Shown: piece after piece, positions 7,608-26,972 of the stretch | Layout of the letters: every line of letters begins with the position of its first letter | Numbering within the stretch: the first letter of the stretch is position 1 | Origin: an uncultured Solibacteraceae bacterium | Lineage (GTDB): Bacteria; Acidobacteriota; Holophagae; Holophagales; Holophagaceae | DNA: 26,972 bases | Direction: 5' to 3' | NCBI GenBank assembly: GCA_964415525.1 | Contig: CAYQAS010000057.1 | Coordinates: 1-26,972 of the forward strand | Made by a program: the position numbers and the translations under genes | The notes under the pieces: generated by a model | Told to the model about the DNA's origin: nothing | Seen by the model: the letters and a program-made list of their open reading frames with translations, nothing else | The model's database searches: none

Positions 7608-7804
7608 AGACCTCAGGGACCTTGGGAATTCAAGACCAGCGTATCGGAAAGTTCCAGCGTGTTGACTCGGATGCTGCCAGGGGCGGATATGCACCGTGAC
7701 GGTGGTCAAATGCTGTCGGGGATGACCATGTCATCGCTCATGAAGGGATTCGAGTTGAATTTCTCGTGGATGCAGCATGGATATGAATGCTGGCTTATGG
7801 AAAT

Positions 7805-7833
7805 GCGGTCCGCATGGATCAGATGCGGGCCGC
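7805..7833 (-). terminator. Putative intrinsic terminator downstream of the M14 peptidase gene. It lies within the hemA upstream region.
   Basis: The 11-bp stem GCGGTCCGCAT/ATGCGGGCCGC has one G-T wobble. On the minus strand it is followed by ATTTCCAT, a weak U-tract. Confidence 0.35.
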
Positions 7834-7866
7834 AAATTAATTCAGGCGGATACGGTTCTCGGCGTT

Positions 7867-10431: not shown

Positions 10432-10625
10432 GGAACCTCCGGGAGTGGGGCCAGTCTACGGGGAAAGGCCTCGCATGGCGATGCATTGGTGGCGCAGCCC
10501 ACCATCCAGCGCGATCCGATGCGAGCTGAACGCGCTCCATAAACGGATCAGCGGAGGTTCTCGACGGCGAGGGCCCGCCCGGTTGAACTGGCAGACTGAG
10601 AACCACTCATCTCCGAAAGGCACCC

Positions 10626-12950
10626 ATGGAACCCCAGCCTCACCTGATCCTCTACGGAATCGGCGGCCTTGTGCTGCTGACCATCCTCCTCAAGTCCTTC
10701 ACCATCGCCCGAGGCAACCAGATCATCCTGCTGGAGCGCCGCTGGTTCGGAAAGCAGATGCCCGATGGCCGCACCGTCGCGCTGAGCAACGAAGTCGGCG
10801 TTCAGGCCCGGGTGCTCGGCCCCGGCTTCCACCTCCTGTTCCCCTTCATCTACCGCGTGATGAAGAAGGATTTCTGCGTCATCCAGGAGAACAAGGTGGG
10901 CGTGGTGCGCGCCGTGGCCGGAGCGCCGATCCCCAGTGGACAGTTCATGGCCAAGGCCGTGGAGTGCGACCTCTTCCAGGACGGCGAGGCCTTCCTCCGC
11001 AACGGCGGCGAGAAGGGGCCGCAGCTGGGGATCCTCCCGGAAGGCGAATACAAGATCAATCCGCATCTCTTCGAAGTGGAAATGGTCGACGCCACGATGA
11101 TTCACGACGACGAAGTGGGTACGGTGGAGTCCATCGCGGGCCAGCCCGTGACGCGGGAAGGCGGCAACTTCGGGTCTCCCGTGCCCTGTGACAGTTTCCA
11201 GGATGCCCAGGCCTTCATCCGCAACGGCGGCCAGAAGGGCCCCCAGATCGCCTTCCTGCAGCCGGGCTACTACCGCATCAATACGCTGATGTTCAAGGTC
11301 CAGAAGCGGCCCATCACCCGCATTCCCGGCGGCAAGATGGGGCTCGTGGAGGCCGCGGACGGTGGTCGCGTACCGGACGGTCGTCTGTTGGCGGCGAAGG
11401 TGCCGGGCCACGGCAATTTCTTTGACGGTCAGGCCTTCATCCAGAACGGCGGCGAGCGGGGGCGGCAGCTGGAAGTGCTGATGCCCGGTGTCTACCGCCT
11501 GAATCCCGTGCTCTTCAAGGTGATTGACATCGTGGACTGGACCCACATCGGGCCGGACGAGGTGGGCATCGTCACCATCAACGAGGGCCGGCCCATCGTG
11601 GATCCCTCCAAGATCGCGGCCGAGGAACTGCCTCTCGACACCCACGACAACTTCCAGAATGCTGACGCGTTCCTGAAGGCCGGTGGTCAGAAGGGTCTGC
11701 AGATCCCAGTCCTGCGCGCCGGCAACTATGCCGTCAATCCTTGGTTCGCCAGCATCGAGCGGGTGGACATGATCCGCGTGGACATCGGGAACTGCGGCGT
11801 GGTGACGAGCTACGTGGGCGGCGAAGGCGCCGACCTCACGGATGACGCGGTGAATGCCAAGATCGTGGCCAACGGCAGCAAGGGCATCTGGGCCGACCCG
11901 CTCCAGCCCGGCAAACACCCACTGAATACCAAGATCTGCAAGGTGGACATCGTGCCCACCACCCAGATCCTCCTGAACTGGGCGGACAACCGTTCCAGCG
12001 CCCACGAGCTGGACTCCAACCTCAAGACCATCACCCTGCGCACCGCCGACGCCTTCAACGTGAACATGGACGTGAGCGTCATCATCCACATCCCCATGAA
12101 GAACGCCCCCAAGGTGATCGCCAACCTCGGCACCGTGCGCAACATGATCAGCCAGGTGCTGGAACCCGCCATCAGCAGCCACTTCCGCAACTCTGCCCAG
12201 TACATCCAGGCCCTCGACCTCTACACCCAGCGCCGGGAGCTGCAGGACAAGGCCAAGCAGCACATCGACGCGGTGCTGCGGGTGCACCACATCGACTCCA
12301 AGGACACGCTCATCGCGGATGTCGTGCTACCGCCTGAGCTGACGAAGACCGTGACTGACCGTCAGATTGCGGAGCAGGAGAAGAAGACCTTCGCGACGCA
12401 GAAGGAGGCCCAGGATGAGCGGCGCAACCTGGAGAACGCCAAGGCCCAGGCCAACATGCAGCCGAAGGTGGTGGAATCGGAGCGGAACGTCGAGATCCAG
12501 AAGAACCTGGCCGAAGGCCGGATCAAGGAGGCTGAAGGCTCCAAGCAGGCGGCCATCCTGATGGCGGAAGGCCAAGCCACCGCCGTGAAGCTGGAAGCGG
12601 GCGGCAAGGCCGAGGCCACCAAGGTCAACGCCGATGCGGATTCCCTGGCCATTCAGAAGGTGGGCACCGCCGAGGCAGAGATCATCCTGGCCAAGGGCAC
12701 CAGCACCGCGGAGGCCTACAAGCTGGAGGTGGCTGCCATGGGTCGCGACGTCTTCGGCCAGATCCGCGTCATCGATAAGATCGCCGGCAGCGACCTGAAG
12801 CTGATCCCCGACAACCTGATCCTCGGTGGCGGCGGTTCGGGCAGCGATGGCGCGGGCCTCATGAACGGCCTTTTCGGCATCGCCCTGCTGGAGAAGCTCA
12901 CGGGACGCACCTTCGCCGTTCACGAGACGACGGAAGCTCCCAAGGCCTGA
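10626..12950 (+). CDS. Flotillin/SPFH (band-7) family membrane-microdomain protein, 774 aa, with an internal tandem-repeat expansion and a C-terminal EA-rich coiled coil
   Basis: It has an N-terminal hydrophobic hairpin (LILYGIGGLVLLTILL) and an SPFH core (..TLRTADAFNVNMDVSVIIHI..). The coiled coil carries AEAE/EA repeats typical of flotillins (KVGTAEAEIILAKGTSTAEAYKLE). Five to six repeats of a ~75-aa module map to nt ~10971-11966. Confidence 0.8.
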   Translation: MEPQPHLILYGIGGLVLLTILLKSFTIARGNQIILLERRWFGKQMPDGRTVALSNEVGVQARVLGPGFHLLFPFIYRVMKKDFCVIQENKVGVVRAVAGAPIPSGQFMAKAVECDLFQDGEAFLRNGGEKGPQLGILPEGEYKINPHLFEVEMVDATMIHDDEVGTVESIAGQPVTREGGNFGSPVPCDSFQDAQAFIRNGGQKGPQIAFLQPGYYRINTLMFKVQKRPITRIPGGKMGLVEAADGGRVPDGRLLAAKVPGHGNFFDGQAFIQNGGERGRQLEVLMPGVYRLNPVLFKVIDIVDWTHIGPDEVGIVTINEGRPIVDPSKIAAEELPLDTHDNFQNADAFLKAGGQKGLQIPVLRAGNYAVNPWFASIERVDMIRVDIGNCGVVTSYVGGEGADLTDDAVNAKIVANGSKGIWADPLQPGKHPLNTKICKVDIVPTTQILLNWADNRSSAHELDSNLKTITLRTADAFNVNMDVSVIIHIPMKNAPKVIANLGTVRNMISQVLEPAISSHFRNSAQYIQALDLYTQRRELQDKAKQHIDAVLRVHHIDSKDTLIADVVLPPELTKTVTDRQIAEQEKKTFATQKEAQDERRNLENAKAQANMQPKVVESERNVEIQKNLAEGRIKEAEGSKQAAILMAEGQATAVKLEAGGKAEATKVNADADSLAIQKVGTAEAEIILAKGTSTAEAYKLEVAAMGRDVFGQIRVIDKIAGSDLKLIPDNLILGGGGSGSDGAGLMNGLFGIALLEKLTGRTFAVHETTEAPKA
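10971..11966 (+). repeat. Protein-level tandem repeats inside the flotillin gene: 5-6 copies of a ~75-aa module F-x-[DN]-x-x-A-F-[IL]-x-N-G-G-x-[KR]-G-x-Q...P-G-x-Y-x-[IL]-N-P-x-x-F-x-V
   Basis: Repeat cores read directly from the translation: FQDGEAFLRNGGEKGPQLGILPEGEYKINPHLFEV; FQDAQAFIRNGGQKGPQIAFLQPGYYRINTLMFKV; FFDGQAFIQNGGERGRQLEVLMPGVYRLNPVLFKV; FQNADAFLKAGGQKGLQIPVLRAGNYAVNPWFASI; and a degenerate NGSKGIWADPLQPGKHPLNTKICKV. Confidence 0.7.
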
Positions 12951-12961
12951 TTTGGGGCTTC

Positions 12962-13003
12962 ATGCAGAAAAGCCAGGACCTGCGGGTCCTGGCTTTTCTG
13001 CAT
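12962..13003. terminator. Strong hairpin between the convergent flotillin (+) and PilZ (-) genes, probably a bidirectional terminator
   Basis: ATGCAGAAAAGCCAGGAC-ctgcgg-GTCCTGGCTTTTCTGCAT forms a perfect 18-bp stem. A/T runs lie inside the stem rather than in a trailing U-tract. Confidence 0.5.
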
Positions 13004-13012
13004 GAGGGGCCG

Positions 13013-13378
13013 TCAGGCGTGCAGGGCGGGGTGCATCAGGCTCTGCACGAGGTGAGAGAGGCGTTCCTGAAAGTCAGAGGGGAGTTCCACGAACTCGAGG
13101 CCGATGGACACGGGATCGTGACCTGTGGTGTAGGCAATCCGGGCCTGGACGGGCTGGTGGGGCAGCATGGGGTGTTCCAGCACGAGGTGGTCCAGCAGGG
13201 TGGAGCGCTCCAGCACATCCATCAGCTGCAGCATCGCCTCTGGCGCCTGGAATCCGCATCCTCCCGCACCCAGCATGGTGACCGGCAGTCCGGTGAAACG
13301 GTGTCCGCCGAAGTGGAACCCGACCTGGATGTGGATCCCGGCCTCTGCGCGCGGGTACTTGCGGAACTCCTGAAGCAT
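13013..13378 (-). CDS. Single-domain PilZ (c-di-GMP-binding) protein, 121 aa
   Basis: An N-terminal RxxxR motif (FRKYPR) is followed by a hydrophobic beta region with a DxSxGG-like segment (PVTMLGAGGCGF). The C-terminus (GHDPVSIGLEFVELPSDFQERLSHLV) is PilZ-like. The amino-acid composition is protein-like rather than a GC-frame artefact. Confidence 0.5.
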   Translation of the reverse strand: MLQEFRKYPRAEAGIHIQVGFHFGGHRFTGLPVTMLGAGGCGFQAPEAMLQLMDVLERSTLLDHLVLEHPMLPHQPVQARIAYTTGHDPVSIGLEFVELPSDFQERLSHLVQSLMHPALHA

Positions 13379-13477
13379 CCGGGCCTCCTGTGCCGGTCAT
13401 TCTGCCCGCAGTTCGAGCCGTTCGCGACCGGCATCCTGCTCGAGGGGGTCTTGAAATTTCCGGGTCGAGATCCTCAG

Positions 13478-14887
13478 ATGGTTTTGAACCCTCCCCCCGG
13501 TGTCTGTTTGAACCTGCTCTCCACATTCGTCTTCGACACGGAAGGCCTCTCCCGGGCGACGCCGGAGGCCTTGGCAGAAGTCCAGCTGCGGCGGATCAAT
13601 GAGCTGGTGGCCTATGCGCGCCGCCACGCCCCATTCTACGAACGCCGGTATCGCGGTCTTCCCGAGGTCATCAGGGATGTTCGCGAGTTGCCACCTGTCA
13701 CCAAGCGGGAGCTGATGGCGAACTTCGACGAGGTGGTGACGGACCCTGCGGTGCGCGAGATCGAGGTGCGTCGGCATTTGGCAGACGTAACCCAGGTGGG
13801 ACATCCCTTCCTCGGGAAATACATGCTCTGGCGGAGCTCCGGCACCACAGGCTCGCCCTGTCTGACGTTGGCGGACTCCCATTGGGAAGCGGCCACCACC
13901 GCACTGAACGTGGTACGCCTCGCTCAGGCTTGGTACACGCCCGATGTCGTGCGCCGAATGCAGGCGCTGGGCGGGCTTCGGGTGTCCATCTTCACGGATA
14001 AGGCGCACTCCATGGGCGGGACGCAGCTCAGCCGCCAGCGCCGAACGAACCCGCAGACGGCGCGGTGCCTCCGCCTGGTTCCCATCACGCTCCCCATCCC
14101 GGAGATGGTAGAGACGCTGAATGAACTCCAGCCCGCCAGTCTCACCGGTTACGCCGCAGCCCTGGAGATCCTGGCGCTGGAGCAGTTGGCGGGTCGACTC
14201 TGCATCCGACCGGCTGTGGTGGTGAGTACAGGTGAGCTTTTACGGCCCCAAGCCAGGGCTCGCATGCTGGAAGCTTTCGGCATTCCGCCTCGCAACCTCT
14301 ACGGGACGACGGAGGCGGGGCTCATCGGCTACGAGTGTGCCTTGGGCCATCTGCACCTGAATGCCGACTGGACGCTCTTCGAGCCCGTGAGCGTGGCACA
14401 CCACCCCTCGGTATCTGGGGAGATGTCGGAGCGTGTGCTGGTCACCAACCTCGCCAACCGCATCCTTCCGGTGATCCGGTGCGAGCTGACAGATCGTGCC
14501 CGAATCCTGCCTGGGCGCTGCGCCTGTGGGCTCACACTGCCTCTGCTCGAGGTGTCAGGCCGCGCGGATGACATTCTCCTCGTTCCTGGGATTGCGGGCG
14601 GGCAGGTGCCCCTTCTGCCCCTGGCACTGGCGGCGGCGCTTCAGCAGACCCTCGGGATCGCCCGCTTCCAGGTGATCCAGACGGCGCCCGCGCAACTGCG
14701 CATCCGCCTGCTCCACCGGGATCCTGCGGAGGCCGATGCGAACTGGGCGGCTTCGGTTCGGAACATGCGGCAGATGCTGGAGGAGCATCGTGCTGCGCCC
14801 GTCGATTTGGTGCGGGCTGAGGAGCCCCCAGAGTGTGATCCCGTGAGTGGCAAGTTCCGGGAGGCCTGGTCGGTCCTCGTCCGCTGA
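13478..14887 (+). CDS. PaaK/coenzyme-F390-synthetase-like adenylate-forming enzyme (phenylacetate-CoA-ligase family)
   Basis: It has the WRSSGTTGSP P-loop motif and the YGTTE motif (NLYGTTEAG) of the PaaK/CapK/F390-synthetase family. I chose the start at ATG 13478, which is in frame with the track ORF and downstream of the PilZ gene. The upstream part of the track ORF overlaps the PilZ gene and is discarded. Confidence 0.7.
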   Translation: MVLNPPPGVCLNLLSTFVFDTEGLSRATPEALAEVQLRRINELVAYARRHAPFYERRYRGLPEVIRDVRELPPVTKRELMANFDEVVTDPAVREIEVRRHLADVTQVGHPFLGKYMLWRSSGTTGSPCLTLADSHWEAATTALNVVRLAQAWYTPDVVRRMQALGGLRVSIFTDKAHSMGGTQLSRQRRTNPQTARCLRLVPITLPIPEMVETLNELQPASLTGYAAALEILALEQLAGRLCIRPAVVVSTGELLRPQARARMLEAFGIPPRNLYGTTEAGLIGYECALGHLHLNADWTLFEPVSVAHHPSVSGEMSERVLVTNLANRILPVIRCELTDRARILPGRCACGLTLPLLEVSGRADDILLVPGIAGGQVPLLPLALAAALQQTLGIARFQVIQTAPAQLRIRLLHRDPAEADANWAASVRNMRQMLEEHRAAPVDLVRAEEPPECDPVSGKFREAWSVLVR

Positions 14888-14923
14888 GGGCGGCCGTGGG
14901 CGATACTGGGGGCGGAGCCCGCC

Positions 14924-15508
14924 ATGTCCAAGACCAGCTTTCCCTCCACCCCCGCCATCCGCGTGCTGAAGGCCGCGGGTGTGCCCTTCACGGAGCATCT
15001 CTACCGCTACGAGGAGAAGGGCGGCACCGCCGTCTCCGCACGGGAGCTCGGTGTGGACGAGCACTGCGTGCTCAAGACGCTGGTGATGGAGGACGACAAG
15101 GGCGGGCCGCTCATCATCCTCCAGCACGGGGATCGCGAAGTGAGCACCAAGGCCCTGGCCCGGCAGGTGGGCGCCCGCAGCATCCAGATCTGCAAGCCCG
15201 AAGTCGCCAACAAGCACAGCGGCTACCTCGTGGGCGGCACCAGCCCCTTCGGCACGAAGAAGGCCATGAAGGTGCATCTGGAGCGCAGCGTTCTGGAGCT
15301 GGAAAAGGTCTACCTGAACGGCGGCAGCAGGGGATTCCTGGTGTGCATGGCGCCTGCGGATCTCGTGAAGGTGCTTGATCCCGTGCTCGTGGATGTGGCG
15401 GGAGAGTCGCTCAGCCCTTCTTGGGACTGGTCTCCTTGGCCCCCTTGGGCACGGGCACGGGCCGACGGAAAGGCTTGTAGTTCGAGAGGTCGGGAGCCGT
15501 GTGGATGA
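14924..15508 (+). CDS. ybaK: Cys-tRNA(Pro)/Cys-tRNA(Cys) deacylase YbaK. It carries a ~35-aa C-terminal extension with no close in-frame stop.
   Basis: The YbaK/ProX deacylase domain is recognisable (..LKTLVMEDDKGGPLIILQHGDREVSTKALARQVG...GYLVGGTSPFGTKK..VYLNGGSRGFLV). The reading frame runs 98 nt into the convergent downstream gene. Confidence 0.7.
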   Translation: MSKTSFPSTPAIRVLKAAGVPFTEHLYRYEEKGGTAVSARELGVDEHCVLKTLVMEDDKGGPLIILQHGDREVSTKALARQVGARSIQICKPEVANKHSGYLVGGTSPFGTKKAMKVHLERSVLELEKVYLNGGSRGFLVCMAPADLVKVLDPVLVDVAGESLSPSWDWSPWPPWARARADGKACSSRGREPCG

Positions 15509-16589
15509 CGCGGTCCTCCTCGTCCACCACCCAATAGAAGTCCTCGTCGGCCTTGTCGCGCACGGAGAGTGCCCCGGGAGGGGCCGTTTCGAGGCGCTTC
15601 ACGGTGCCCGTGGAAGGCTTCACGGTGAACCAGGTGACGAAGGGGAAGGTTGTGCGGATCTCCGTCTCGCGTACCGCATAGACACGACCATAGTTCTCGA
15701 AGGCTTCGGGAGGGTTTCCGCGGTTGGGCGCGATCTTGCGCATGTCCGCCCAGAAGGTCTGGCGCGCCTTCAACAGATCGGGCAGCTGGTCCGCGTGCAG
15801 CGAGCTCACCAGGAGATCGCCATCCTTCAGGGGCTGGAAGTTCAGGACCGTCACCAGGCCTTCTTTGGCTTCCACCATGCGCTTCGTGACCTCTTCGCCG
15901 AAGAGCTGCGCCGTGCGCCGTAGGGCGCCGTTCTCGAGGCTGAAGATCCAGAAGACACCGTAGTGCGGCGAGGCGAGGACGAGGTGGTCCTCCGTGAGGG
16001 TCAGGGCGTGGGGTTGGAGAGCGACGTTCTTCAGCACTGGGTGGTTTTGGAAGGGCAGAGGGGTGAAGCTGCCCGACTCCAGGTGCTCCAGGGCACCCTT
16101 GTCGTTGAGGCGGTAGGTGGCGAAGGGCGCCGCGACGTGCTTCTTTGTCTCCTCCTCGGTGGGCGGTGGCCCCAGCACCAGGAACCGACCGTTCTTCAGC
16201 GGAACGAGGGTGGGCAGGAAGCCTTTCATTGCGGTGGCGGGCAGCAGCGCGATGGGCGTCCAGCCTTCGAGCTTGCGCTCGAACAGCGTCGTGCCTTTCT
16301 CGTTCCGGACGTTCACATAGAGTACCGTTCCGATGGCAAAGGGCTTCTGGTCGCCGGGGCCCTTGAGCAGGTCCACCTCGGAGGCTCCGGAAGGCGCGGC
16401 GGAAGTGCCCGGCCGGGGCACAGTCGTCACGCCCTCCCGGCCCAGCATGCGGATCTCGGAGGCGTTCGAAGCCACCAAAAGTTGGTCACCCACCCATTGG
16501 CCGATGGGGTTGACGAAAACTTCCGGGGGATCCGCCAGCATCGGCAAAACCGAGAGGGCGAGGCAGGCGAGGAGGGCGGGACACAACAT
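15411..16589 (-). CDS. Secreted protein of unknown function, 392 aa, with a signal peptide
   Basis: The signal peptide is MLCPALLACLALSVLPMLA. It is a long ORF with ordinary protein composition. I recognise no family motif. It lies directly downstream of the small secreted-peptide gene on the same strand. Confidence 0.6.
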   Translation of the reverse strand: MLCPALLACLALSVLPMLADPPEVFVNPIGQWVGDQLLVASNASEIRMLGREGVTTVPRPGTSAAPSGASEVDLLKGPGDQKPFAIGTVLYVNVRNEKGTTLFERKLEGWTPIALLPATAMKGFLPTLVPLKNGRFLVLGPPPTEEETKKHVAAPFATYRLNDKGALEHLESGSFTPLPFQNHPVLKNVALQPHALTLTEDHLVLASPHYGVFWIFSLENGALRRTAQLFGEEVTKRMVEAKEGLVTVLNFQPLKDGDLLVSSLHADQLPDLLKARQTFWADMRKIAPNRGNPPEAFENYGRVYAVRETEIRTTFPFVTWFTVKPSTGTVKRLETAPPGALSVRDKADEDFYWVVDEEDRVIHTAPDLSNYKPFRRPVPVPKGAKETSPKKG

Positions 16590-16659
16590 GAGACAGGCCT
16601 TGATTGAATTATTACATCTTGCGCGAAATGGCTGAGAGGCGGGTCGTGCCCGTAAGGCT

Positions 16660-16903: not shown

Positions 16904-17296
16904 TTGATTCATAGAATAGAGCTGCGATGCTCACTCTCCGCTCCGTGACTTACTGTGTTGGAATGCTTGGCGATTTCGCGAATGGGGGCTCACGCTGGAT
17001 GTCCTCTGGACATTGCGGTGAATTCCTCGTCACCGCGGCCCGTGCTGGCGTGGGGCGCATCCCAATGAGGCGTTGCCGTAAAGAAAGCACCCCCGCGGTG
17101 AGGCAGGGGCGTGTCCACTGGAGCGGGTCCTTGGCTACTTCTTGGATTCCGCTTCGTCGAGCTTCTCGCCCCGACGCGTGACGCCATCCGTGGTGACGGT
17201 GACTGTTGTGCAGCTGAATCGGTGTGGGCTTTATCGGACATGCGTCCAGAGGCGATGACATCGGCGCCAGGAGTGCAAGGGATGGGTGGAGATGTG

Positions 17297-17328
17297 GTCT
17301 AGACGACTGGTCTACTTTAGATATTATA
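17297..17328 (+). promoter_or_regulatory. Putative TetR operator and promoter. A palindromic site GTCTAGACGACTGGTCTA overlaps a -35-like element, and a TATTAT -10 lies 6 nt before the tetR ATG.
   Basis: GTCTAGAC is a perfect 8-bp palindrome, and there are TAGAC-N5-GTCTA inverted arms. The 16-mer CTAGACGACTGGTCTA recurs (14/16 identical) upstream of the ADH gene. The AT-rich TTTAGATATTATAGG stretch lies directly before the ATG, which may mean a leaderless transcript. Confidence 0.5.
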
Positions 17329-17333
17329 GGTCC

Positions 17334-17918
17334 ATGGCGCCGTCCGACGTTCGTTCCCACATCCTCGACACTGGCCTGGGCATCATCGCCCAGCGTGGCT
17401 TCACCGCGGTGGGGCTGGCGGAATTGCTGGCGGCGGCGGGGGTGCCCAAGGGCAGCTTCTATCACTGGTTCGCCAGCAAGGAAGCCTTTGGCGAGGCGAT
17501 GCTCGACCGTTACTTCGAGGACTACCTGCAGCGGATGGAACCGGTGCTGGCGGCGCCGGGGAAGGATGCCCGGGAGCGCCTGCTGGACTACTGGCGCCTC
17601 TGGCTGGAAACCCAGACCCCCTGCGCCTGTGTGCAGCCCTGTCTCGTGGTGAAGCTGGCGGCGGAGGTCTCGGATCTCAGCGAACCCATGCGGCTCTCGC
17701 TTCTACGCGGCACGCGCCGGGTGGAGGATCGTCTTAGCCGTGTGGTGGAGGAGGGGCTGCGCGTCGGCACTTTTAGCGAGATCGATCCTGCCACCACGGC
17801 GCGGAATCACTATGCCCTCTGGCTCGGTGCGAGCCTCTTGGCCAAGATTACGCGTTCTGGCGAGCCTCTGGTGGCGGCCTTCCGGGCCACCGAGACTCAG
17901 TTGACGCCTTCCAAATAA
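17334..17918 (+). CDS. TetR/AcrR-family transcriptional regulator
   Basis: The N-terminal HTH is typical: ..ILDTGLGIIAQRGFTAVGLAELLAAAGVPKGSFYHWFASKEAF. I chose the start at MAPSD (ATG 17334), downstream of the operator. The upstream GTG/ATG in the track ORF would place the operator inside the coding region. Confidence 0.85.
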   Translation: MAPSDVRSHILDTGLGIIAQRGFTAVGLAELLAAAGVPKGSFYHWFASKEAFGEAMLDRYFEDYLQRMEPVLAAPGKDARERLLDYWRLWLETQTPCACVQPCLVVKLAAEVSDLSEPMRLSLLRGTRRVEDRLSRVVEEGLRVGTFSEIDPATTARNHYALWLGASLLAKITRSGEPLVAAFRATETQLTPSK

Positions 17919-17997: not shown

Positions 17998-19155
17998 ATG
18001 CAGCCCTTCGACGTCTACAATCCCACCCGCATCGTGTTTGGCGAGGGTCGCATCCAGGAACTGGATCGCCTGGTCCCAGCCTCGGCCAAGGTGCTCATTC
18101 TCACCGGCGGATCCAGCGCCGAGCGCACGGGCACGCTGGCCGAAGTCCAGAAGGCCCTCGGCAGCCGCAGCCACGCCACCTTCAACGGCATCGAGCCGAA
18201 CCCGACCTTCGAGACTCTGATGAAGGCGGTCGAGGAAATCCGTGCCGAAGGCTTCGACTTCCTGCTGGCGGTGGGCGGCGGGTCCGTCATCGACGGCACC
18301 AAGTTCATCGCCGCGGCGGTGCCCTACCCGGGCGACGCCTGGGAGATCATGCAGACCCGGGGGCGCAAGGTGAAGGCCGCCGTGCCCTTCGGGAGCGTGC
18401 TGACCCTCCCCGCCACGGGCTCGGAGATGAACAGTGGGGCCGTCATCACCCGCGCCGCCACCCAGGACAAGCTGGTCTTCGGCAGTCCGCTCTGCTTCCC
18501 CGTCTTCTCCATCCTCGATCCGGCCAAGACCCTCACGCTGCCGCCCCGGCAGGTGGCGAATGGCATCGTGGATGCCTTTGTCCACACCACGGAACAGTAT
18601 TTGACAGTGCCTGTCGGTGGGCACATCCAGGATCGCTTCGCGGAAGGCATCCTCTCCACGCTGATCGAGCTCGGGCCGCGCGCCCTGTCTGAGCCGGAAA
18701 ACCTGGAGGTCCGCGCCAGCCTCATGTGGGCGGCGACCCTCGCCCTGAACGGCCTCATTGGCGCGGGTGTGCCTCAGGACTGGGCGACGCACATGGTGGG
18801 CCACGAACTGACCGCCCTCCATGGCATCGACCACGCTCGCACCCTTGCGCTGGTACTGCCCGCGACCCTGCATGTCCGCCGGAATGCCAAGCGCGCGAAA
18901 CTCCTGCAGTACGGCGAGCGGGTGCTGGGCATCCGGGAAGGCACCGAGGAAGAGCGCATCACCGCCGCCATCGAAGGCACTCGCGCCTTCTTCGAATCCC
19001 TGGGCGTGCCGACGCGATTCGCTGCCTATGGCCTGGACGCCAGCGCCATCCCCGCCGTGATGGCGAAGCTGGAAACCCACGGTATGACGGCCCTTGGCGA
19101 GGACCAGGGACAGACTTTGGGGGTGAGTCGCCGCATTCTGGAAGCCGCGCTGTAG
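17998..19155 (+). CDS. yqhD: Iron-containing (group III) alcohol dehydrogenase, YqhD/BdhA-like NAD(P)H-dependent aldehyde reductase
   Basis: It shows Fe-ADH family hallmarks: a GGGS dinucleotide-binding motif (LLAVGGGSVIDGTKF) and conserved His residues (ALHGIDHARTLA..). An AAGGAG RBS lies 8 nt upstream. Confidence 0.85.
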   Translation: MQPFDVYNPTRIVFGEGRIQELDRLVPASAKVLILTGGSSAERTGTLAEVQKALGSRSHATFNGIEPNPTFETLMKAVEEIRAEGFDFLLAVGGGSVIDGTKFIAAAVPYPGDAWEIMQTRGRKVKAAVPFGSVLTLPATGSEMNSGAVITRAATQDKLVFGSPLCFPVFSILDPAKTLTLPPRQVANGIVDAFVHTTEQYLTVPVGGHIQDRFAEGILSTLIELGPRALSEPENLEVRASLMWAATLALNGLIGAGVPQDWATHMVGHELTALHGIDHARTLALVLPATLHVRRNAKRAKLLQYGERVLGIREGTEEERITAAIEGTRAFFESLGVPTRFAAYGLDASAIPAVMAKLETHGMTALGEDQGQTLGVSRRILEAAL

Positions 19156-19245: not shown

Positions 19246-21843
19246 TCAGTGGTAGGTCACACGATAGAGATCCGCAGCAACCTGCCCCTGATGGAGGATC
19301 TCGTACACGTAACCGGCCCCATCTGCCGTGATGTCAAATTCCGTCACGATGGCGTTTCGATCCGTGGGGCCCGAAATCTGTTGAACCCGGGTCAGGGTTC
19401 CGTTCTTCACGCTGCATCGCCAGAGGGTCAGGGGGAAGGCGCCAGAGCCGTTGCTCGTGCTCAGCAGCCAGATGGACTTGCCATCGGTGCTCCAGCCCAC
19501 AGGGGACTTTCCCACCACGGCTGAAGGAAGGGGAAGCATGGTTCCGAGGAGGAGGTTCACCTGGTACCAGGTCGCGGTGGGTGCCTGCTCTTTGCGCACC
19601 ATGGCCCATTGTCCGTCGGGCGAGAGGGGGCCTGTGAACTCCGCGGCAGACCAGGGGAGCCGGGTCAGGGTCCCTGCCTCGACATCGCACAGGTAGGGGA
19701 TCGATGGACCCTCTGGATCTCCGGCCTGACGTCCGAACAGGAAGACTTTCTGTGCCGTTCCCGCGAATCGAACCTGGGCCGTGAGCCAATTCCCCGGCAG
19801 ATGGGTGGACTTTCCAGGGCCCACCGGAACACGCTGGAAGCGTCTGAAGGAGCCCACGTCGGTCCATACCAGCACCCAGAGGTTGTCCGGAGAGATGGTC
19901 GCCACGGGGCCCTCAGTGATCGGCATGACCTCGGGGGCTCCGGCCCTCTGCAGTTTTCCCTGATACGTCGGGGTGCCATTCCAGCTGTTGAAGGCGAGCA
20001 GGTGTCCATCCCGGCTGAGGCCGCTGAGACTCTGAAATCGTCCGGCACTCACGGGACGCTCGTTCGCGGCCCCAGGTGCGAGCCATCGGAGGCTGACCCC
20101 CGTCCCCTCCCAGCCTTTGGGCGAAATCAGCACATCGCCGGTGGTATGGACGTCGTACAGGTTCGGCAGCCCTTCGAAGGCGCGCACCATTCGCTTCAAC
20201 CGACCTCGATCATCCATTTCCACCAGTTGGCTGCCGCTACGACCCTCATCAGGCACGGCGAGGCCCAGCAGGCGATTCCCTTTGCTATAGAGGGTGCCCA
20301 TGACTCTCGTCGGGAGCGGGTATGGCCCGAAATGAGCCCCATCCAATGAAAGGACCCGTAGCCTTTGACCCCAGCCGGCCTTTTCGACAAAGGCGATCCG
20401 TCTTCCGGGCAGCGCGGCCATGGCGCCGATTTCGGCTTGGGGGGAGGCCTCGAACAGGCAACGCCCCTGGAACTCTATGCCTTGGATCTTGCGACCCTGG
20501 AAATTCGCGTGACAGATCACAGGAGACGGCTCACCCGGCACCCAGAGCACCTGATCGTCGGGAGTGGCGAAGCGGTCTGAGATGACACGGGGGGTGCCTC
20601 CTTCCAGCGAACGCACCGCAAGAACCGGCTGATCGCCATGGAGGTAGAGGGCGATGTCGCCTCGAGGCGAAATCCCGAGCACCTTGGCATCCTTCACGCC
20701 CACAGACTGGGGGGCTGTTCCGGGCCCCATCAGATAGAGTTCGTGTGAATCCGCAGCATCCGGACTGCCCGTGAAAGCCACGGATTTCCCATCGGGCAGG
20801 AATCGGGCGGCGCTGTAGAACCAAGGCGCCGGATTGAGGCGCTCCATGTGGGGTTCAGGACGGGGACGCAGGCGGTGGCCTCCGACGACACCCAGTCCCA
20901 GGAGGGCCAGAACGCCTGCCGCTGCAAGGAGCCTTGGCCTCGTGAGTTTGGATCGCGTGCGAAGCGGAGCAACAGCGGACGTTCCCTGGCTTTCCGCATC
21001 CAGGGCGAAGATCAGATCGTGTGCGGTGTGGAAGCGGAGGTCTGGATCCTTGGAAAGGCAGGTACGGACAATGCGCTCCAGCAGCGGGGAAACCTTCAGG
21101 GCCGGGTCCAGGTCCGGCAGTTCTCCCTCCAGCACCTGATACATGATTTCGACCTGGCTCTCGCCCTGGAATGGGCGTGTGCCGGTGAGCAGCTCCCACA
21201 GGACGATGCCAAGGGCAAACAGGTCGGATCGGCCGTCCAATGCCTTCCCCCGGATCTGTTCCGGGCTCATGTACCCGAGGGTCCCGAGGATCATGCCGAC
21301 CTGGGTGGAGTTCGCTTCGACCAACGCCAAGGTTCGCTCATCCACGGCGGGCGTGAGGTCCGGACGGCGCCAGAGCTTGGCGAGGCCGAAGTCCAGCACC
21401 TTCACCCGCCGATCCTGGCAAATGAAGATGTTCTCGGGCTTGAGATCCCGATGGATGATGCCCTTGCCGTGGGCGGCGTGGAGGCCTTCAGCCACCGCCC
21501 GGACGATCTCCACGGTTCGGCGGGTGGCCATGGGTTTTCCTGCGAGAGCCTGCCGAAGGGATTGCCCTGTGAGCAACTCCATGACGAGATACGGGCGCTC
21601 TTCCCAACTTCCTACGTCAAAGAGGGTGACGAGGTTGGGGTGGTTGAGATCCCCGATGGTGCGGGCTTCCAGTTCAAAGCGCCGCAGGAGTTCGCGGTCT
21701 GCCTTGTAGGTCGGATGCAGCAGTTTGATGGCGACGTCACGCCCTAAGCGCGTGTCCTGTGCCCGGTAGATGGCCCCCATCCCCCCTGCGCCAATCTGGG
21801 CGAGGATCTTGTAGGGGCCAATGACAGTCCCTTCTGAAATCAT
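19246..21843 (-). CDS. Hanks-type Ser/Thr protein kinase with one TM segment and a C-terminal periplasmic beta-propeller (TolB/WD40-like) sensor domain, 865 aa
   Basis: Kinase motifs are present: GAGGMGAIY (G-loop), VAIK, HRDLKPEN, DFG, GTLGYMSPE. A TM segment (LLAAAGVLALLGLGVVGG) is followed by ~500 aa of repetitive beta-rich sequence. Confidence 0.85.
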   Translation of the reverse strand: MISEGTVIGPYKILAQIGAGGMGAIYRAQDTRLGRDVAIKLLHPTYKADRELLRRFELEARTIGDLNHPNLVTLFDVGSWEERPYLVMELLTGQSLRQALAGKPMATRRTVEIVRAVAEGLHAAHGKGIIHRDLKPENIFICQDRRVKVLDFGLAKLWRRPDLTPAVDERTLALVEANSTQVGMILGTLGYMSPEQIRGKALDGRSDLFALGIVLWELLTGTRPFQGESQVEIMYQVLEGELPDLDPALKVSPLLERIVRTCLSKDPDLRFHTAHDLIFALDAESQGTSAVAPLRTRSKLTRPRLLAAAGVLALLGLGVVGGHRLRPRPEPHMERLNPAPWFYSAARFLPDGKSVAFTGSPDAADSHELYLMGPGTAPQSVGVKDAKVLGISPRGDIALYLHGDQPVLAVRSLEGGTPRVISDRFATPDDQVLWVPGEPSPVICHANFQGRKIQGIEFQGRCLFEASPQAEIGAMAALPGRRIAFVEKAGWGQRLRVLSLDGAHFGPYPLPTRVMGTLYSKGNRLLGLAVPDEGRSGSQLVEMDDRGRLKRMVRAFEGLPNLYDVHTTGDVLISPKGWEGTGVSLRWLAPGAANERPVSAGRFQSLSGLSRDGHLLAFNSWNGTPTYQGKLQRAGAPEVMPITEGPVATISPDNLWVLVWTDVGSFRRFQRVPVGPGKSTHLPGNWLTAQVRFAGTAQKVFLFGRQAGDPEGPSIPYLCDVEAGTLTRLPWSAAEFTGPLSPDGQWAMVRKEQAPTATWYQVNLLLGTMLPLPSAVVGKSPVGWSTDGKSIWLLSTSNGSGAFPLTLWRCSVKNGTLTRVQQISGPTDRNAIVTEFDITADGAGYVYEILHQGQVAADLYRVTYH

Positions 21844-22070: not shown

Positions 22071-22871
22071 CTATCTGGGCAGTTCGGTGGTTTCTACACA
22101 GGCGGCCTTCATACGGTCCCGCTTAAGGGCGGCGATGGCGGCGTGAGGCGCCTGCATCCGGGCATCGGCGTAAAAGTCGAGGCGGTCCAGGAGGAGCGTC
22201 AGGGCTTGGAGGGCCGAGGCGGCATGGCATCGGCCGAACAGGGCGAGGGCCAGGGCGCACAGGGCCAAGATCCCTCGCACCCTCCTGGCCCATTCCGCCT
22301 GGAGTCGCAGATGGGGAAACTCCGCTACGAGGCCCGCAGGCGTGCGGGCGGCATCGGCCTGGCGAAGCTGGGCCGCGGCGAGATCCGACAGTCCGAAGAT
22401 GAGGATGGCGGCCTTCCAGCCCGCCAGGGTGCTTCCCAACAGGAGCACGGAAAGCACGGGGGCCGCGAGGGCCGCCGGGGTGGACCATCCGGGCCTCGCC
22501 TCAAGGCGATAGAGCGCTGCGATCGCCACCGCGAGGAGCACCCCCGCGGCTCCCGCCAGCTGGCCTGGAGCCAGGGCGCTCAGGCTCAGCATCAGACTCC
22601 CGGCAAAGCCTCCGGCCATCATGGCCTCCCGGCTCAGCCAAGAATGGGTGATGCCTCGAAGGGCGAAGGCAGCTCGCGCCTTCTGTCCCAGATGGAGGAA
22701 TGAAAGGCTGCCGCCGACGACGCCGAGTCCGAGGGCCAGGCCCTGCAGGAAAGGGGATGGGAGGAGTGGTCGGGGCAGGGCACTCCCCAGGGCGAGGCCC
22801 GCGGCGAGGAGCAGGGCCCATGTGAAGCCGACCAATGGCAGGTGTTCGGTGAAGTCCGGCTGGTGCCTCAT
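22071..22871 (-). CDS. DmsC/NrfD-like polytopic membrane anchor subunit of a molybdopterin oxidoreductase
   Basis: It is a highly hydrophobic protein with multiple predicted TM helices. I chose the start at MRHQPDF (ATG 22871), which overlaps the upstream Fe-S gene stop (ATGA). The Arg/Gly-rich extension in the track ORF is discarded. Confidence 0.6.
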   Translation of the reverse strand: MRHQPDFTEHLPLVGFTWALLLAAGLALGSALPRPLLPSPFLQGLALGLGVVGGSLSFLHLGQKARAAFALRGITHSWLSREAMMAGGFAGSLMLSLSALAPGQLAGAAGVLLAVAIAALYRLEARPGWSTPAALAAPVLSVLLLGSTLAGWKAAILIFGLSDLAAAQLRQADAARTPAGLVAEFPHLRLQAEWARRVRGILALCALALALFGRCHAASALQALTLLLDRLDFYADARMQAPHAAIAALKRDRMKAACVETTELPR

Positions 22872-23434
22872 GGCTCCTCCACCGTGGAACAGGGGGGTGG
22901 GAAGGCACCGGACCCGCCGCCGAAGCGGATGGCGGGACGCGCTCCGGGCAAATGCAGAAATCCTGGCGTGGCCCTTGGCAGACCTTCCATGTCCGTCAGA
23001 GGCGCCAAGCCCAGGGCTCCGGCGAAGCAGGTGGCCACACAGGCCGGCTCCCGGCCGCGATCCCGACGATCGGTGCAGAGCTGGCACTTGGAGACGACCT
23101 TGCGCACGGCATCCCAATGGATCGCCCCGAAGGAACAGGCCATCTGGCAGTAGCGGCAGCCCAGGCAGCGGGTGGCATCATGCAGCACGGCGCCATCGGA
23201 GGCCCGCTTTGTCAGGGCTTCCGCAGGGCAGGCGCGGACACAAGGCGCACCTTCGCAGTGGTTGCACGCCAGGGAAAGGTAGACGGTGCCAGATGAACCG
23301 GCCTCCGGAGGCAGCTTCAGGACCTGCCGCCAGAGCAGGTCCGGGGGCGTTCCGTTCACGTTGGCGCAGGCGCCCACGCAGCCCTGGCAGCCGAAGCAGC
23401 GGTCCGGATCAAAGCGGAAGGCCAGCTGGGTCAT
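22868..23434 (-). CDS. 4x[4Fe-4S] ferredoxin-type electron-transfer subunit (DmsB/PsrB/NrfC-like)
   Basis: Four Cys clusters are present: CFGCQGCVGAC, CNHCEGAPCVRACP, CLGCRYCQMAC and CQLC..(x12)..CVATC. There is a 4-nt overlap with both neighbouring genes. Confidence 0.85.
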   Translation of the reverse strand: MTQLAFRFDPDRCFGCQGCVGACANVNGTPPDLLWRQVLKLPPEAGSSGTVYLSLACNHCEGAPCVRACPAEALTKRASDGAVLHDATRCLGCRYCQMACSFGAIHWDAVRKVVSKCQLCTDRRDRGREPACVATCFAGALGLAPLTDMEGLPRATPGFLHLPGARPAIRFGGGSGAFPPPCSTVEEP

Positions 23435-25503
23435 GGCTCGCTCCTGCGGAGGTCCACGAGTGTGTCCTGGTAGGACGGCTGTCCTCCCAGGCCCGTGGCG
23501 CCCGTGACGGCGGCGGGGACGGGACAGGAGGCGTCGGTCAGCTCATTGAGTTCCGGCCAGGCGTCGTTGAGGCCGATCTGGCCCGGCAGCAGCTCCGTGG
23601 TCCACTCCACGCGCACCCGCGCCGATCCGCGGTCATTCCAGATCACGGCGAGTTGGCCGTCTCCGATGCCGCGGCGGGAGGCGTCCACCGGATGCACGTG
23701 GAGCAGGGGCTCCGGTTCCAGGGCGCGGAGGGTGGGCAGCACGCGGTGGCTGTCGTGGAAGCTGTGGAAGTGCGTGTTGCGGCGTTCGGACAGCAGCCTC
23801 AGGGGATACCGGGCGGCGAGCTCCGGGTGGCCTTCGGGGCTTTCCGGGGCCGCTTCCGCCGTGGGGAGGGGTGGCAGCCCGAGGTCCGCAGCGGCCTGGG
23901 AATGAAATGCGAAGCGCCCGGAGGGCGTCTCGAATCGAAGGTCCCCATAGGGCACCGCGGGAAGTTGTGCCGGTAGTCCTTCAGGATGGCGTCGCAGATC
24001 CGTGACCGTGGCAGGCCGGCACGCTGCGGAATCCAGGCAGGCGTTCAGGCACGCCTCCTTGTCCGCCCAAGGGAAATAGTCCGTCACGTCCAGGCGGCGG
24101 GCCAGATCGTCCATCCATCCGGAGGCCTCGCGGCAGGCGCCGGGGGGATCCAGGGCCTTGTCCATGAGGTAGATCCGGCTGTTGGAGGTCCGCAAGCCCA
24201 GCTCCTCCAGCCAGGAGGTGGCCGGAAGCACGAGATCCGCCGCCTCCCGGGCGGTGTGGTTCAGGAACAGATCGTTGACCACCACGAGCGGAATCCGGGC
24301 GAACTGACTCCGGAGGCGGTTCAAGTGCGGCCATTGGGAAAGGGGGTTTCCCCCCACGACGAGCAGCGTGTCGATGTCACCCGCCTCCAGGGCGGCATCG
24401 ATGGCGCCGTGGTTGTTCTCGGGGTAGCCAATGCCGCCGGGGCGGCGCTCCCGGGCCTGGAGGTCCAGGTTCCAGTCGATGGCCTCCCCCCAGATGACCC
24501 CGCCTCCGGGGATTCCGATGTGACCTCCGAGGGCCACCAGGCAGAGGATGGCGCGGACCATCTGCACGCCGTTCCAGCGCTTTCCCAGGGCGCCTCGACT
24601 GAGGTTGGTGCAGAGGGGCCGATGCTCGCCATAGAGGCGTGCCAGGCGCTCCAGGTCCTCCAGGCGCAGGTCGCAAGCCCGGGCCGCCTCCCGGGGTTCC
24701 AGGGCCAGGACGTGGGCGCGGTAGGCCTCGTATCCATCGCCCAGGGACCGCATCGCAGTTTCGTCCACGAGGCCATGGCGCACCATGAGGCCTGCCACGC
24801 CATTGGCGAGCCAGGTGTCGCTGCCCGGGCGAGGACGCAGGTGCCAGGTGCTCAGGGCGGCGGTCTGGGAGACCCGGGGATCGATGGTGACCACCTCGCC
24901 ACCTCGGTCCCGGACCTGGAGCAGGTAGGGCACGAGGTTGGCCTGGGAGGCAGCCGGATCCTGAGCCCAGTTCACGAGGGCTGACGCGTGGTGACCGGTC
25001 TCCACGGGATCGTGCAGGCCCCAGTATCCCGTGAGGGACTGGGCCAGGCCGACGTCGTACCAGCAGGGGAAGTTGCCATCCCAGAGGGTCATGCCCAGGA
25101 GGTTGGCGAAGCGTGGCGTGAGGATCTTCCAGTTCACCCGCTGCACGATGTTGCCGTGGCTGTGATACAGCGCATTGGCCTGAGGGCGTCCCGCGTCGAG
25201 GTTCGTGCGCATGCGACCCGCGATGCATCCCAGGGCCTCCTCCCAGGAGATGGATTCCCACTGGCCGGAGCCCCGGGGGCCGAGGCGCCGGAGCGGCTGG
25301 GTCAGCCGTTCCGATGCACGCTGGATTTCACCCGAGGCCTGGCCTTTCACGCAGAGGCGGCCGCGGCTGACATCGTGGTGGGGATTGCCTTCCAGCCCGA
25401 CCAGGGCCCCGTGCTCCACTTCCACTCGCAGCCCGCAGTTCACGGGCCAGCAATTGTGCGGGCAGACGGTGTGGTGGATCGTGCGTCCAAACGTGGCATC
25501 CAT
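23431..25503 (-). CDS. Molybdopterin (Mo/W-bisPGD, DMSO-reductase-superfamily) oxidoreductase catalytic subunit, 690 aa, with no Tat signal
   Basis: An N-terminal Fe-S Cys cluster (HHTVCPHNCWPVNCGL) is followed by ..LCVKGQ.. and then a typical Mo-bisPGD fold. The N-terminus begins directly at the Cys motif, with no RRxFL Tat motif. I checked that an in-frame stop lies 14 codons upstream with no alternative start between it and the ATG. Confidence 0.85.
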   Translation of the reverse strand: MDATFGRTIHHTVCPHNCWPVNCGLRVEVEHGALVGLEGNPHHDVSRGRLCVKGQASGEIQRASERLTQPLRRLGPRGSGQWESISWEEALGCIAGRMRTNLDAGRPQANALYHSHGNIVQRVNWKILTPRFANLLGMTLWDGNFPCWYDVGLAQSLTGYWGLHDPVETGHHASALVNWAQDPAASQANLVPYLLQVRDRGGEVVTIDPRVSQTAALSTWHLRPRPGSDTWLANGVAGLMVRHGLVDETAMRSLGDGYEAYRAHVLALEPREAARACDLRLEDLERLARLYGEHRPLCTNLSRGALGKRWNGVQMVRAILCLVALGGHIGIPGGGVIWGEAIDWNLDLQARERRPGGIGYPENNHGAIDAALEAGDIDTLLVVGGNPLSQWPHLNRLRSQFARIPLVVVNDLFLNHTAREAADLVLPATSWLEELGLRTSNSRIYLMDKALDPPGACREASGWMDDLARRLDVTDYFPWADKEACLNACLDSAACRPATVTDLRRHPEGLPAQLPAVPYGDLRFETPSGRFAFHSQAAADLGLPPLPTAEAAPESPEGHPELAARYPLRLLSERRNTHFHSFHDSHRVLPTLRALEPEPLLHVHPVDASRRGIGDGQLAVIWNDRGSARVRVEWTTELLPGQIGLNDAWPELNELTDASCPVPAAVTGATGLGGQPSYQDTLVDLRRSEP

Positions 25504-25558
25504 GCTGATGAGGCTCCCGCCGATGAGGGCCCTGGAAAGGGGGGCTCAGGCCAATGGG

Positions 25559-25885
25559 TCAGTTCTGATCGTAGAGCCGCATGGCCAGCCCGCCATGGGC
25601 GGCGGCGCCGCCGGCGCGCAGGGCCGAAGCCAGCAGGATGGCCTCCGCCACCTCCGCCTTGGTGGCGCCGGCCTTCTTCGCGGCGGCCACGTGGACGTCG
25701 ATGCAGTAGGCGCACTGGGTGGTGTGGGCCACGGCGATGGCGATCAGCTCGCGGTATTTGCGGGGGATGGCACCGTCCTCCCGGGCCACGATGCGGTCCA
25801 GGTCGAGCCAGGCCTTGAAGTCCTGGGGGGCGGCGGCGGCGAGTTCCTTCAGGTGCTTGAGGTCTTCTGGGGACTGATAGGACAT
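25559..25885 (-). CDS. Carboxymuconolactone decarboxylase / AhpD-like family protein, 108 aa
   Basis: The AhpD-type motif HTTQCAYCIDVH (CxxC...H) is present, and the ~110-aa size fits the CMD family. Confidence 0.7.
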   Translation of the reverse strand: MSYQSPEDLKHLKELAAAAPQDFKAWLDLDRIVAREDGAIPRKYRELIAIAVAHTTQCAYCIDVHVAAAKKAGATKAEVAEAILLASALRAGGAAAHGGLAMRLYDQN

Positions 25886-25922
25886 GGAATCCTCCTGGGC
25901 GGTGCGAAACCGCCTGCAAATA

Positions 25923-25954
25923 GGGCCGGGGTGCCCGTTCGGAAGCCCCGGCCC
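25923..25954 (-). terminator. Putative intrinsic terminator downstream of the PFOR gene
   Basis: GGGCCGGGG-(14-nt loop)-CCCCGGCCC forms a 9-bp GC stem. On the minus strand it is followed by CTATTTGC. A second small hairpin, GGCGG-tgcgaaa-CCGCC, is at 25896-25912. Confidence 0.4.
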
Positions 25955-25975
25955 GGTTGAAAGGTGATCGAGCTG

Positions 25976-26972
<997 letters not shown>

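Follow-up and report, generated by a model that had tools for sequence, protein, structure and literature searches.

The contig CAYQAS010000057.1 (GCA_964415525.1), with 26,972 bp and 65% G+C, was analyzed over its whole length, hereafter called the window. Its minus strand encodes three consecutive proteins that we name A, B and C: a catalytic subunit of the molybdenum or tungsten bis(pyranopterin guanine dinucleotide) (Mo/W-bisPGD) type, an iron-sulfur (Fe-S) subunit related to DmsB, and a haem-less membrane anchor of the DmsC family (Table 1). The A/B and B/C junctions both read ATGA, a 4-nt overlap of stop and start codons, and an AhpD-like gene precedes A in the same direction, just as a first-pass annotation of this DNA had described. 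The length of C is counted from an ATG internal to a longer TTG open reading frame (ORF).

Table 1. Features of the A-B-C genes and their upstream flank, in window positions.
Feature	Position	Strand	Description or basis
AhpD/CMD-like gene	25559-25885	-	108 aa, CxxC protein; PF02627 (76.9 bits), also TIGR00778
Subunit A, Mo/W-bisPGD catalytic	23431-25503	-	690 aa, no signal peptide; PF04879, PF00384, PF01568
Subunit B, DmsB-like Fe-S	22868-23434	-	188 aa, no signal peptide; PF13247, 4 x 4 Cys
Subunit C, DmsC-family haem-less anchor	22071-22871	-	266 aa; PF04976
FS0 [4Fe-4S] motif of A, C14-P-H-N-C18-W-P20-V-N-C23	25435-25464	-	sequence
C51 of A, fourth FS0 ligand	25351-25353	-	sequence
Cys147 of A, predicted Mo/W ligand, in invariant C-W-Y-D	25063-25065	-	alignment to FdhF and acetylene hydratase
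His60 of anchor C	22692-22694	-	aligned to DmsC H65
Glu82 of anchor C	22626-22628	-	aligned to DmsC E87
GC-rich hairpin, 9-bp outer stem, then UAUUUG	25923-25954	-	22 nt past the PFOR stop
Pyruvate:ferredoxin oxidoreductase (PFOR), C-terminal part, cut by the contig end	25976-26972	-	TIGR02176, 365 bits, model positions 868-1166

By its three Pfam domains (PF04879, PF00384 and PF01568) and its fold, A is a member of the Mo/W-bisPGD (MopB/DMSO reductase) superfamily. Its N-terminus, MDATFGRTIHHTVCPHNCWPVNCGL...GRLCVKG, carries the Cys residues of the FS0 cluster in the arrangement C14-x3-C18-x4-C23-x27-C51. The ORF begins at the first start codon past an in-frame stop located 14 codons upstream, and the gap between the stop of the AhpD-like gene and the start of A is 55 nt, which leaves no room for a twin-arginine translocation (Tat) leader of 30-45 aa. 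A missed leader or an alternative start was therefore rejected; no upstream start restores an RRxFL motif, and the first-pass annotation was right on both the absent leader and the unusual Cys spacing.

Among the candidates scored, 709 homologues of A were found at E<=1e-10, and the names attached to the recovered sequences are all generic. The 77 closest clusters, with 50-83% identity, are referred to here as the ABC clade, while a second and distant group of 43 clusters shows ~39% identity. Of the ABC-clade clusters, 73 carry the motif CP[YH]NCWP[VI]NC or one close to it, the remaining four being N-terminally truncated, and CPMNCHPT[LYQ]C is found in 42 of the 43 distant clusters. A twin-arginine leader is absent from all these 73 close and 42 distant motif-bearing homologues, in which the first Cys lies a median of 10-12 residues from Met1. 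No variation was seen among 40 family members at C14, P15, N17, C18, W19, P20, C23 and C51. When 151 sequences were aligned, 134 had a gap at position 20, where the Cx3Cx4C members have Pro, indicating that Pro20 is an inserted residue. The Cx3Cx4C spacing is a family trait and not a sequencing accident.

In an exhaustive HMMER search of 1.84 billion representatives at 50% identity, the ABC clade corresponds to one full-length representative and two fragment clusters, and the next two matches are again Cx3Cx4C proteins. Beyond them lies a broad set of mostly Tat-less enzymes of 650-700 aa with various other spacings, among them Cx3Cx3C (49 clusters) and Cx2Cx3C (39). A neighbour-joining (not maximum likelihood) tree with 100 bootstraps, restricted to near relatives and three controls, gave support of 100/100 to the ABC clade, to the other Cx3Cx4C proteins, and to the node joining both. 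These other Cx3Cx4C enzymes share with A the Pro20 insertion, His116, Cys147-Trp148, Lys308 and the lack of a Tat leader, but they are only ~39% identical, have His19 in place of Trp19 and are devoid of Arg303, Asp150 and Glu340. They also differ in having no partner genes, since no Fe-S or anchor neighbours were found for the Cx3Cx4C relatives outside the ABC clade. As the spacing also occurs in soluble, partner-less relatives, it is not tied to a membrane architecture; in A it is inherited from soluble ancestors. Four of the stand-alone genes (P0080, P0103, P0078 and P0154, in loci L022, L023, L024 and L030, respectively) have unrelated neighbours, such as DoxX, SnoaL and Zn-ADH, and these stand-alone relatives, where named, are assigned to Rokubacteria/Methylomirabilota.

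The AlphaFold2 model of A (pLDDT 90.5) has the generic four-domain Mo-bisPGD fold and is about equally similar to formate dehydrogenase (Fdh), Nap, Pcr, acetylene hydratase and DMSO reductase (TM 0.77-0.84), with identity to any solved structure not exceeding 24%. No NCBIfam molybdoenzyme model comes near its curated cut-off with A; the best match is the NasC model, with 188 bits against a cut-off of 1100, followed by Fdh-alpha (184 against 666), DmsA/YnfE (TIGR02166, 137 against 778) and PhsA (NF012032, 126 against 694). The family profile of A scores FdhF with 254 bits, acetylene hydratase with 236 and PsrA with 215, and the best PDB matches are the FdhF of HDCR (7qv7) and the F420-dependent Fdh. 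No description of this catalytic clade was found in the literature searched for the Cx3Cx4C spacing and for Tat-less DmsC systems. A represents an uncharacterised lineage of catalytic subunits that turned up, in this analysis, only in uncultured bacteria; the unrecognised clade that had been proposed from the window holds up, and A groups with none of the well-characterised cytoplasmic clades.

Cys147 aligns with the Cys of the C-H motif of FdhF (7qv7), which we take to be the metal ligand, and with the Cys of the M-C-I-G-N segment of acetylene hydratase, presumably its ligand Cys141; in E. coli DmsA the same column holds Ser. The residue following the ligand is Trp148, instead of the His of formate dehydrogenases. 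At the R-G-Q segment of Fdh, which we assume to carry the catalytic Arg333, the A family reads GGGxIWGE, the HMMER alignment ending just before that segment. Trp19-Pro20 follow Cys18, with the D-I-N-C of acetylene hydratase aligned to P-V-N-C, and would hold the place of what we take to be the catalytic Asp13 of that enzyme. Invariant H116 and R303 lie opposite residues 145 and 332 of PsrA in the profile alignment; Cys173, His145 and Arg332 of PsrA are reportedly active-site residues (Jormakka et al. 2008). Lys53, on the path between FS0 and the pterin, is conserved. Within the 151-sequence alignment, the constellation formed by W19, P20, H114, H116, N118, C147-W-Y-D150, R303, K308, W338, E340, H578, H580 and H583 is exclusive to ABC-clade sequences, with one member (P0077) that deviates at four residues. 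As a set they most likely make up a specific substrate site, and our leading guess at the substrate is a small inorganic sulfur species or an oxyanion.

Subunit B has 16 Cys residues in four groups of four and matches PF13247, while its score for TIGR02951 (125 bits) is below the cut-off of 214. It is 35-41% identical to E. coli DmsB, to SoeB and to the B subunits of Moorella. The protein begins straight at its first cluster, and no Tat signal was found on B either in the window or across the 73 close homologues.

Subunit C matches PF04976 (DmsC) with 25.9 bits, over a cut-off of 22.3, and the Pfam search returned no NrfD (PF03916) match, so that of the "NrfD/DmsC-type" label originally given to this anchor only the DmsC part is retained. 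The AlphaFold2 model (pLDDT 82) shows 8 long transmembrane helices and a C-terminal amphipathic helix (H242-262), with ActC and PsrC (TM about 0.57 for the latter) as best structural matches, and C aligns helix for helix with E. coli DmsC. A single-sequence search recovered 4 anchor proteins, and a profile search 27. One of these homologues, P0139 (446 aa), combines a DmsC-family membrane domain with a multi-cluster ferredoxin domain and would be a natural B-C fusion. His60 and Glu82 are invariant in the C family and align with His65 and Glu87 of DmsC, the first of which we assume to have a role in the quinol site. For E87, a role in menaquinol binding is indicated by a title in the reference list of PMC6303296. 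A quinone site thus appears to be retained in C and would lie near the cytoplasmic face.

For the orientation of the anchor, Lys and Arg residues of the N-terminus, loops 2-3, 4-5 and 6-7 and the C-terminus were counted against those of loops 1-2, 3-4, 5-6 and 7-8. The counts are 15 vs 2 in the window anchor and, on average, 17.1 vs 2.5 in the family (n=12), the partner A being Tat-less in both cases. The SoeC-annotated anchor of L026, encoded next to a Tat-less SoeA-like gene, has the same N-in type of bias (21 vs 3). The opposite bias is seen in E. coli DmsC, whose partner is Tat-exported (4 vs 8, or 3 vs 5 when based on the alignment), and in the DmsC of Moorella, whose partner has an RRKFL leader (6 vs 10). 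The charge bias follows the export status of the partner in all controls, which groups the C family with the inward-facing type. E. coli DmsC is N-out, and a cofactor-loaded molybdoenzyme needs Tat for its export. The Tat leader is visible in the E. coli and Moorella DmsA controls and absent in A. We predict that C is inserted N-in/C-in, opposite to E. coli DmsC; the N-out/C-out insertion of the DmsABC type would leave 15 Lys+Arg on the predicted periplasmic loops, vs 2 on the other side. Two independent lines, the absence of Tat signals on A and B and the charge bias of the anchor, suggest that the catalytic part most likely faces the cytoplasm, one of the two options raised by the first-pass annotation.

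The conservation of the gene arrangement was evaluated in 38 non-redundant loci from species-genome and metagenome collections. Recurrent across lineages are A (34 loci), B (26) and C (23), and nothing else; when all neighbours were clustered, the other recurring ORF clusters proved to be shadow ORFs in A/B or single-lineage synteny. Loci from the species-genome scan, all of them (16/16) in metagenome-assembled genomes (MAGs), were assigned to Acidobacteriota, Planctomycetota/Phycisphaerae, Omnitrophota, Myxococcota, Aminicenantes, Rhodothermaceae, Deferrimicrobium and others. The gene order is mostly A-B-C, with C-A-B in L011 and L020 and two genes between A and B-C in L017.

We consider it likely that A, B and C build a heterotrimeric complex iron-sulfur molybdoenzyme, encoded by translationally coupled genes, with its catalytic dimer on the cytoplasmic face of the membrane. 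A would bind Mo- or W-bisPGD via Cys147 and the FS0 [4Fe-4S] cluster on C14, C18, C23 and C51, with Lys53 probably connecting the pterin to FS0, and B would hold four [4Fe-4S] clusters. C would be a haem-less eight-helix anchor, and its N-in/C-in insertion would turn the conserved docking loops and the quinone-site residues His60 and Glu82 toward the cytoplasm. A substrate in the cytoplasm would exchange electrons, at the Mo/W centre, with the (mena)quinone pool via FS0 and the clusters of B. Of the two directions we favour an oxidation of the substrate that reduces quinone, which is how SoeABC works; with the quinone site on the cytoplasmic side this would be the energy-conserving half of a redox loop. 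It seems that A descended from soluble, partner-less cytoplasmic Cx3Cx4C enzymes and then gained a DmsB/DmsC-type module. More tentatively, A-B-C could be a new cytoplasm-facing, quinone-coupled Mo/W family with a substrate or reaction not yet assigned in MopB, made of a soluble Cx3Cx4C enzyme and a DmsB/DmsC module with an inverted anchor, where Trp19-Pro20 and the His, Arg, Asp and Glu residues of the constellation would form a new active site.

Some observations weigh against a universal membrane-bound, cytoplasm-facing complex of this kind. In four loci of one lineage (L005, L015, L038 and L047) A-B occur without an adjacent anchor, and in L002 A is alone, so the membrane link is not universal. 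The clustering of neighbours over the 38 loci revealed no dedicated chaperone or cofactor genes near A-B-C, and the genomic context of the window and of these loci is uninformative about direction and substrate. Mo and W are not distinguishable as the metal. Also, the orientation rests on sequence rules, namely the lack of Tat motifs and the distribution of charges (positive-inside rule) evaluated with a crude hydropathy predictor.

The first-pass annotation considered a Tat-less catalytic subunit with Fe-S and anchor partners as odd. Such a combination is present here, but the architecture of A-B-C has precedent. In NarGHI, too, a Mo subunit that lacks a Tat signal is combined with Fe-S and anchor partners. 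SoeABC and SreA resemble A-B-C in the Cys-type, Tat-less Mo-bisPGD subunit, the four-cluster Fe-S subunit and the haem-less PF04976 anchor. SoeABC is the sulfite:quinone oxidoreductase of Allochromatium vinosum (Dahl et al. 2013, cited in PMC10100899 and PMC6303296), and SoeA and the bacterial SreA are described as cytoplasmic, Cys-ligated enzymes (PMC10100899). Unplaced novel lineages of the Cys type, with best matches similar to acetylene hydratase, Psr or Dms, have also been reported (PMC10100899).

The strongest competitor of the oxidative complex keeps the same orientation with the reverse electron flow, A-B-C being a quinol-dependent reductase of a cytoplasmic acceptor (sulfur or polysulfide, an S- or N-oxide, or another oxidised compound). 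It would then resemble the bacterial SreABC sulfur reductase or, bioenergetically, fumarate reductase; we see both this reading and the resemblance as possible, at clearly lower odds than the heterotrimeric complex itself. B and C are most similar to the reductase-type DmsB and DmsC: compared with E. coli DmsABC/YnfFGH, which are S-/N-oxide and selenate reductases, B has the same four-cluster Cys pattern with 35% identity, and C belongs to the same Pfam family. The position of H116 and R303 opposite residues 145 and 332 of PsrA, reportedly active-site residues of a reductase, would also fit this reading, and several of the source phyla are mainly anaerobic. The bacterial SreA is given as a cytoplasmic reductase in PMC10100899. 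However, we infer that a quinol site on the cytoplasmic side would free protons inside the cell and conserve no energy; the direction itself is not fixed by anything in the sequences.

That A-B-C is a sulfite:quinone oxidoreductase, as an orthologue or functional equivalent of SoeABC, is rather improbable. A-B-C and L026 have in common three subunits, the lack of a Tat leader and a DmsC-family anchor of the N-in type; the comparison used the SoeA of L026, one metagenomic protein with a KO annotation, and not that of A. vinosum. On the other hand, that SoeA has about 940 aa, vs 690 in A, and a Cx2Cx3C instead of a Cx3Cx4C spacing, and BLASTP aligns the two over the N-terminal 230 residues only (28% identity, 72 bits), with no match over the C-terminal 703 aa. 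The anchors are distantly related as well, since the anchor profile of C gives the SoeC-like proteins 52-67 bits, less than the 81 bits of the Tat-type Moorella DmsC. The length of A, the partial alignment, the FS0 spacing and the anchor scores exclude SoeABC orthology, and we regard A-B-C, on these comparisons, as analogous and not orthologous to SoeABC. Sulfite is a possible substrate, with no specific support.

A membrane-linked cytoplasmic formate dehydrogenase or assimilatory-type nitrate reductase is very unlikely. FdhF/FdhH and NasC resemble A in size (about 690-740 aa), cytoplasmic location, position of the Cys/Sec ligand and presence of FS0, and they rank first by HMM, PDB and fold score, yet the NasC and Fdh-alpha scores are 3.6- to 6-fold under the curated cut-offs. 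They also differ from A in their partners and in the Cx2Cx3C spacing of FS0 in FdhF, and Trp148 and GGGxIWGE replace the His after the ligand and the R-G-Q of Fdh, so A was rejected as a member of these families.

Even less probable is a conventional periplasmic, Tat-exported reductase of the Dms, Psr or Phs type whose leader was missed, through a wrong start or a frameshift, or which hitch-hikes on an unlinked Tat substrate. In its favour, the best-known representatives of the DmsB and DmsC families, to which B and C belong, do face the periplasm. Nevertheless, the in-frame stop and the 55-nt gap leave no place for a leader, none of the 73 homologues, from independent assemblies, carries an RR leader, the charge bias of the anchor is reversed in relation to Tat-dependent controls, and the predicted ligand is Cys and not the Ser of DmsA. 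Membership of A in DmsA/YnfE was rejected by the missing leader, the Cys ligand, the TIGR02166 score and the anchor orientation; E. coli DmsA differs, in addition, by its 814 aa and Cx3Cx3C spacing. PsrA is Tat-exported and periplasmic. PsrABC of T. thermophilus (PDB 2VPW) is similar in the Cys-ligated A and the anchor fold, with His145 and Arg332 of PsrA aligned to His116 and Arg303, but the NF012032 score, the lack of a leader and an anchor matching PF04976 only, with no NrfD match, led us to reject a Psr/Phs membership.

Equally remote is the idea that A is a non-redox enzyme of the acetylene hydratase type with B and C as unrelated neighbours: acetylene hydratase is among the top profile matches (236 bits) and the nearest relatives of A are stand-alone, but the genes are coupled by ATGA and syntenic across phyla, Lys53 on the FS0-pterin path is conserved, and the Asp after the second FS0 Cys (the presumed catalytic Asp13) is absent, with Trp19-Pro20 instead, so this membership was rejected.

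Regarding the genes flanking A-B-C, the AhpD-like gene and PFOR were both highlighted in the first-pass annotation. PFOR does lie beside A-B-C on the same strand, and the A-B-C part of the synteny recurs across the 38 loci, but the AhpD-like gene accompanies it only in the window: neither an AhpD-like nor a PFOR gene adjoins A in the other 37 loci, including a 76%-identical relative. This led us to reject a functional operon link of A-B-C to either of them; they are incidental neighbours, outside the conserved A-B-C unit. The AhpD-like gene may be co-transcribed with A-B-C in the window. Its best specific NCBIfam match is TIGR04169 (arsenosugar-biosynthesis-associated peroxidase-like), with 64 bits against a cut-off of 120, too weak for an assignment. 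PFOR is probably a transcription unit separate from A-B-C, given the stable GC-rich hairpin after its stop, which is possibly a terminator separating it from the downstream genes. The RNA fold of the hairpin region (25886-25985) has -45.1 kcal/mol and z = -2.63; a scan for consensus promoters and terminators returned nothing relevant and did not report the hairpin.

The gene directly downstream of A-B-C, at 19246-21843 (-), codes for a Ser/Thr protein kinase of 865 aa whose C-terminus carries a long extension. Related kinases are found past A-B, after a TPR protein, in L005 (10729-12765), L015 (~10777-11574) and L038 (12678-14783), which belong to the anchor-less lineage. That a kinase follows A-B(-C) probably reflects synteny within a lineage rather than a link in function. 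Beyond the kinase, on the opposite strand, there are a TetR-family regulator (17286-17918, +) and an iron-containing alcohol dehydrogenase (17998-19155, +), for which no link to the Mo system was seen. Of ten other window ORFs searched against Pfam, just two were recognised, both on the plus strand: a peptidase S49 (3098-4930) and an SPFH/Band 7 protein (10626-12950). The plus-strand ORFs 1179-3101, 5207-6505, 6645-7913, 7777-9153, 9157-10419 and 12962-14887 have no Pfam match at E<=1e-5; given the 65% G+C, some of the Pfam-less plus-strand ORFs (1179-16607) may be shadow ORFs of minus-strand genes.

Some individual loci deserve description. In the Omnitrophota MAG in which A is alone (L002), there is no B or C within 6 kb of A, and A is followed by a 395-aa ORF (8186-9373) with the N-terminus LIGAGHIH. 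It may resemble an FAD/NAD(P)-dependent pyridine-nucleotide-disulfide oxidoreductase and might be a candidate alternative electron partner. An in-frame stop interrupts the anchor gene of L008 (~5457-6308), located on an Acidobacteria MAG contig labelled cov 1.04, and the SoeA-like gene of L026 (2374-5194) is split into ORFs of 239 and 703 aa, both cases being probably assembly errors or pseudogenes. In the cultured Moorella sp. ACPs (CP136420.1; L027), the region 2912-12712 contains a classical Tat-dependent DmsABC-like operon. Directly after it lies a Tat-less 676-aa Mo enzyme with Cx3Cx3C spacing, 32% identical to A, which comes with a separate DmsB-like subunit of its own, an Fe-S protein of 386 aa and a gene for a NarJ-family chaperone. 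This Moorella could be a tractable model for the wider Tat-less relatives.

Much of the cycling of S, N, As and Se by microbes is driven by Mo/W enzymes of the MopB superfamily, and their substrates are usually guessed by similarity. The ABC family, with members at least 50% identical across several phyla, would most likely be labelled by annotation pipelines as a DMSO or polysulfide reductase and as periplasmic, and both labels are probably wrong. It would be a second, independent catalytic lineage, beside SoeABC, that works with an inward-facing anchor of the DmsC family, and it offers a natural test case of how the orientation of the anchor follows the export status of the partner subunits. 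The identification of its substrate would give a function to a recurrent gene cluster of sediment, soil and groundwater metagenomes. If our proposal is true, A-B-C could be an unrecognised link from cytoplasmic sulfur species or oxyanions to the quinone pool in uncultured Acidobacteriota, Planctomycetota, Omnitrophota and other phyla.

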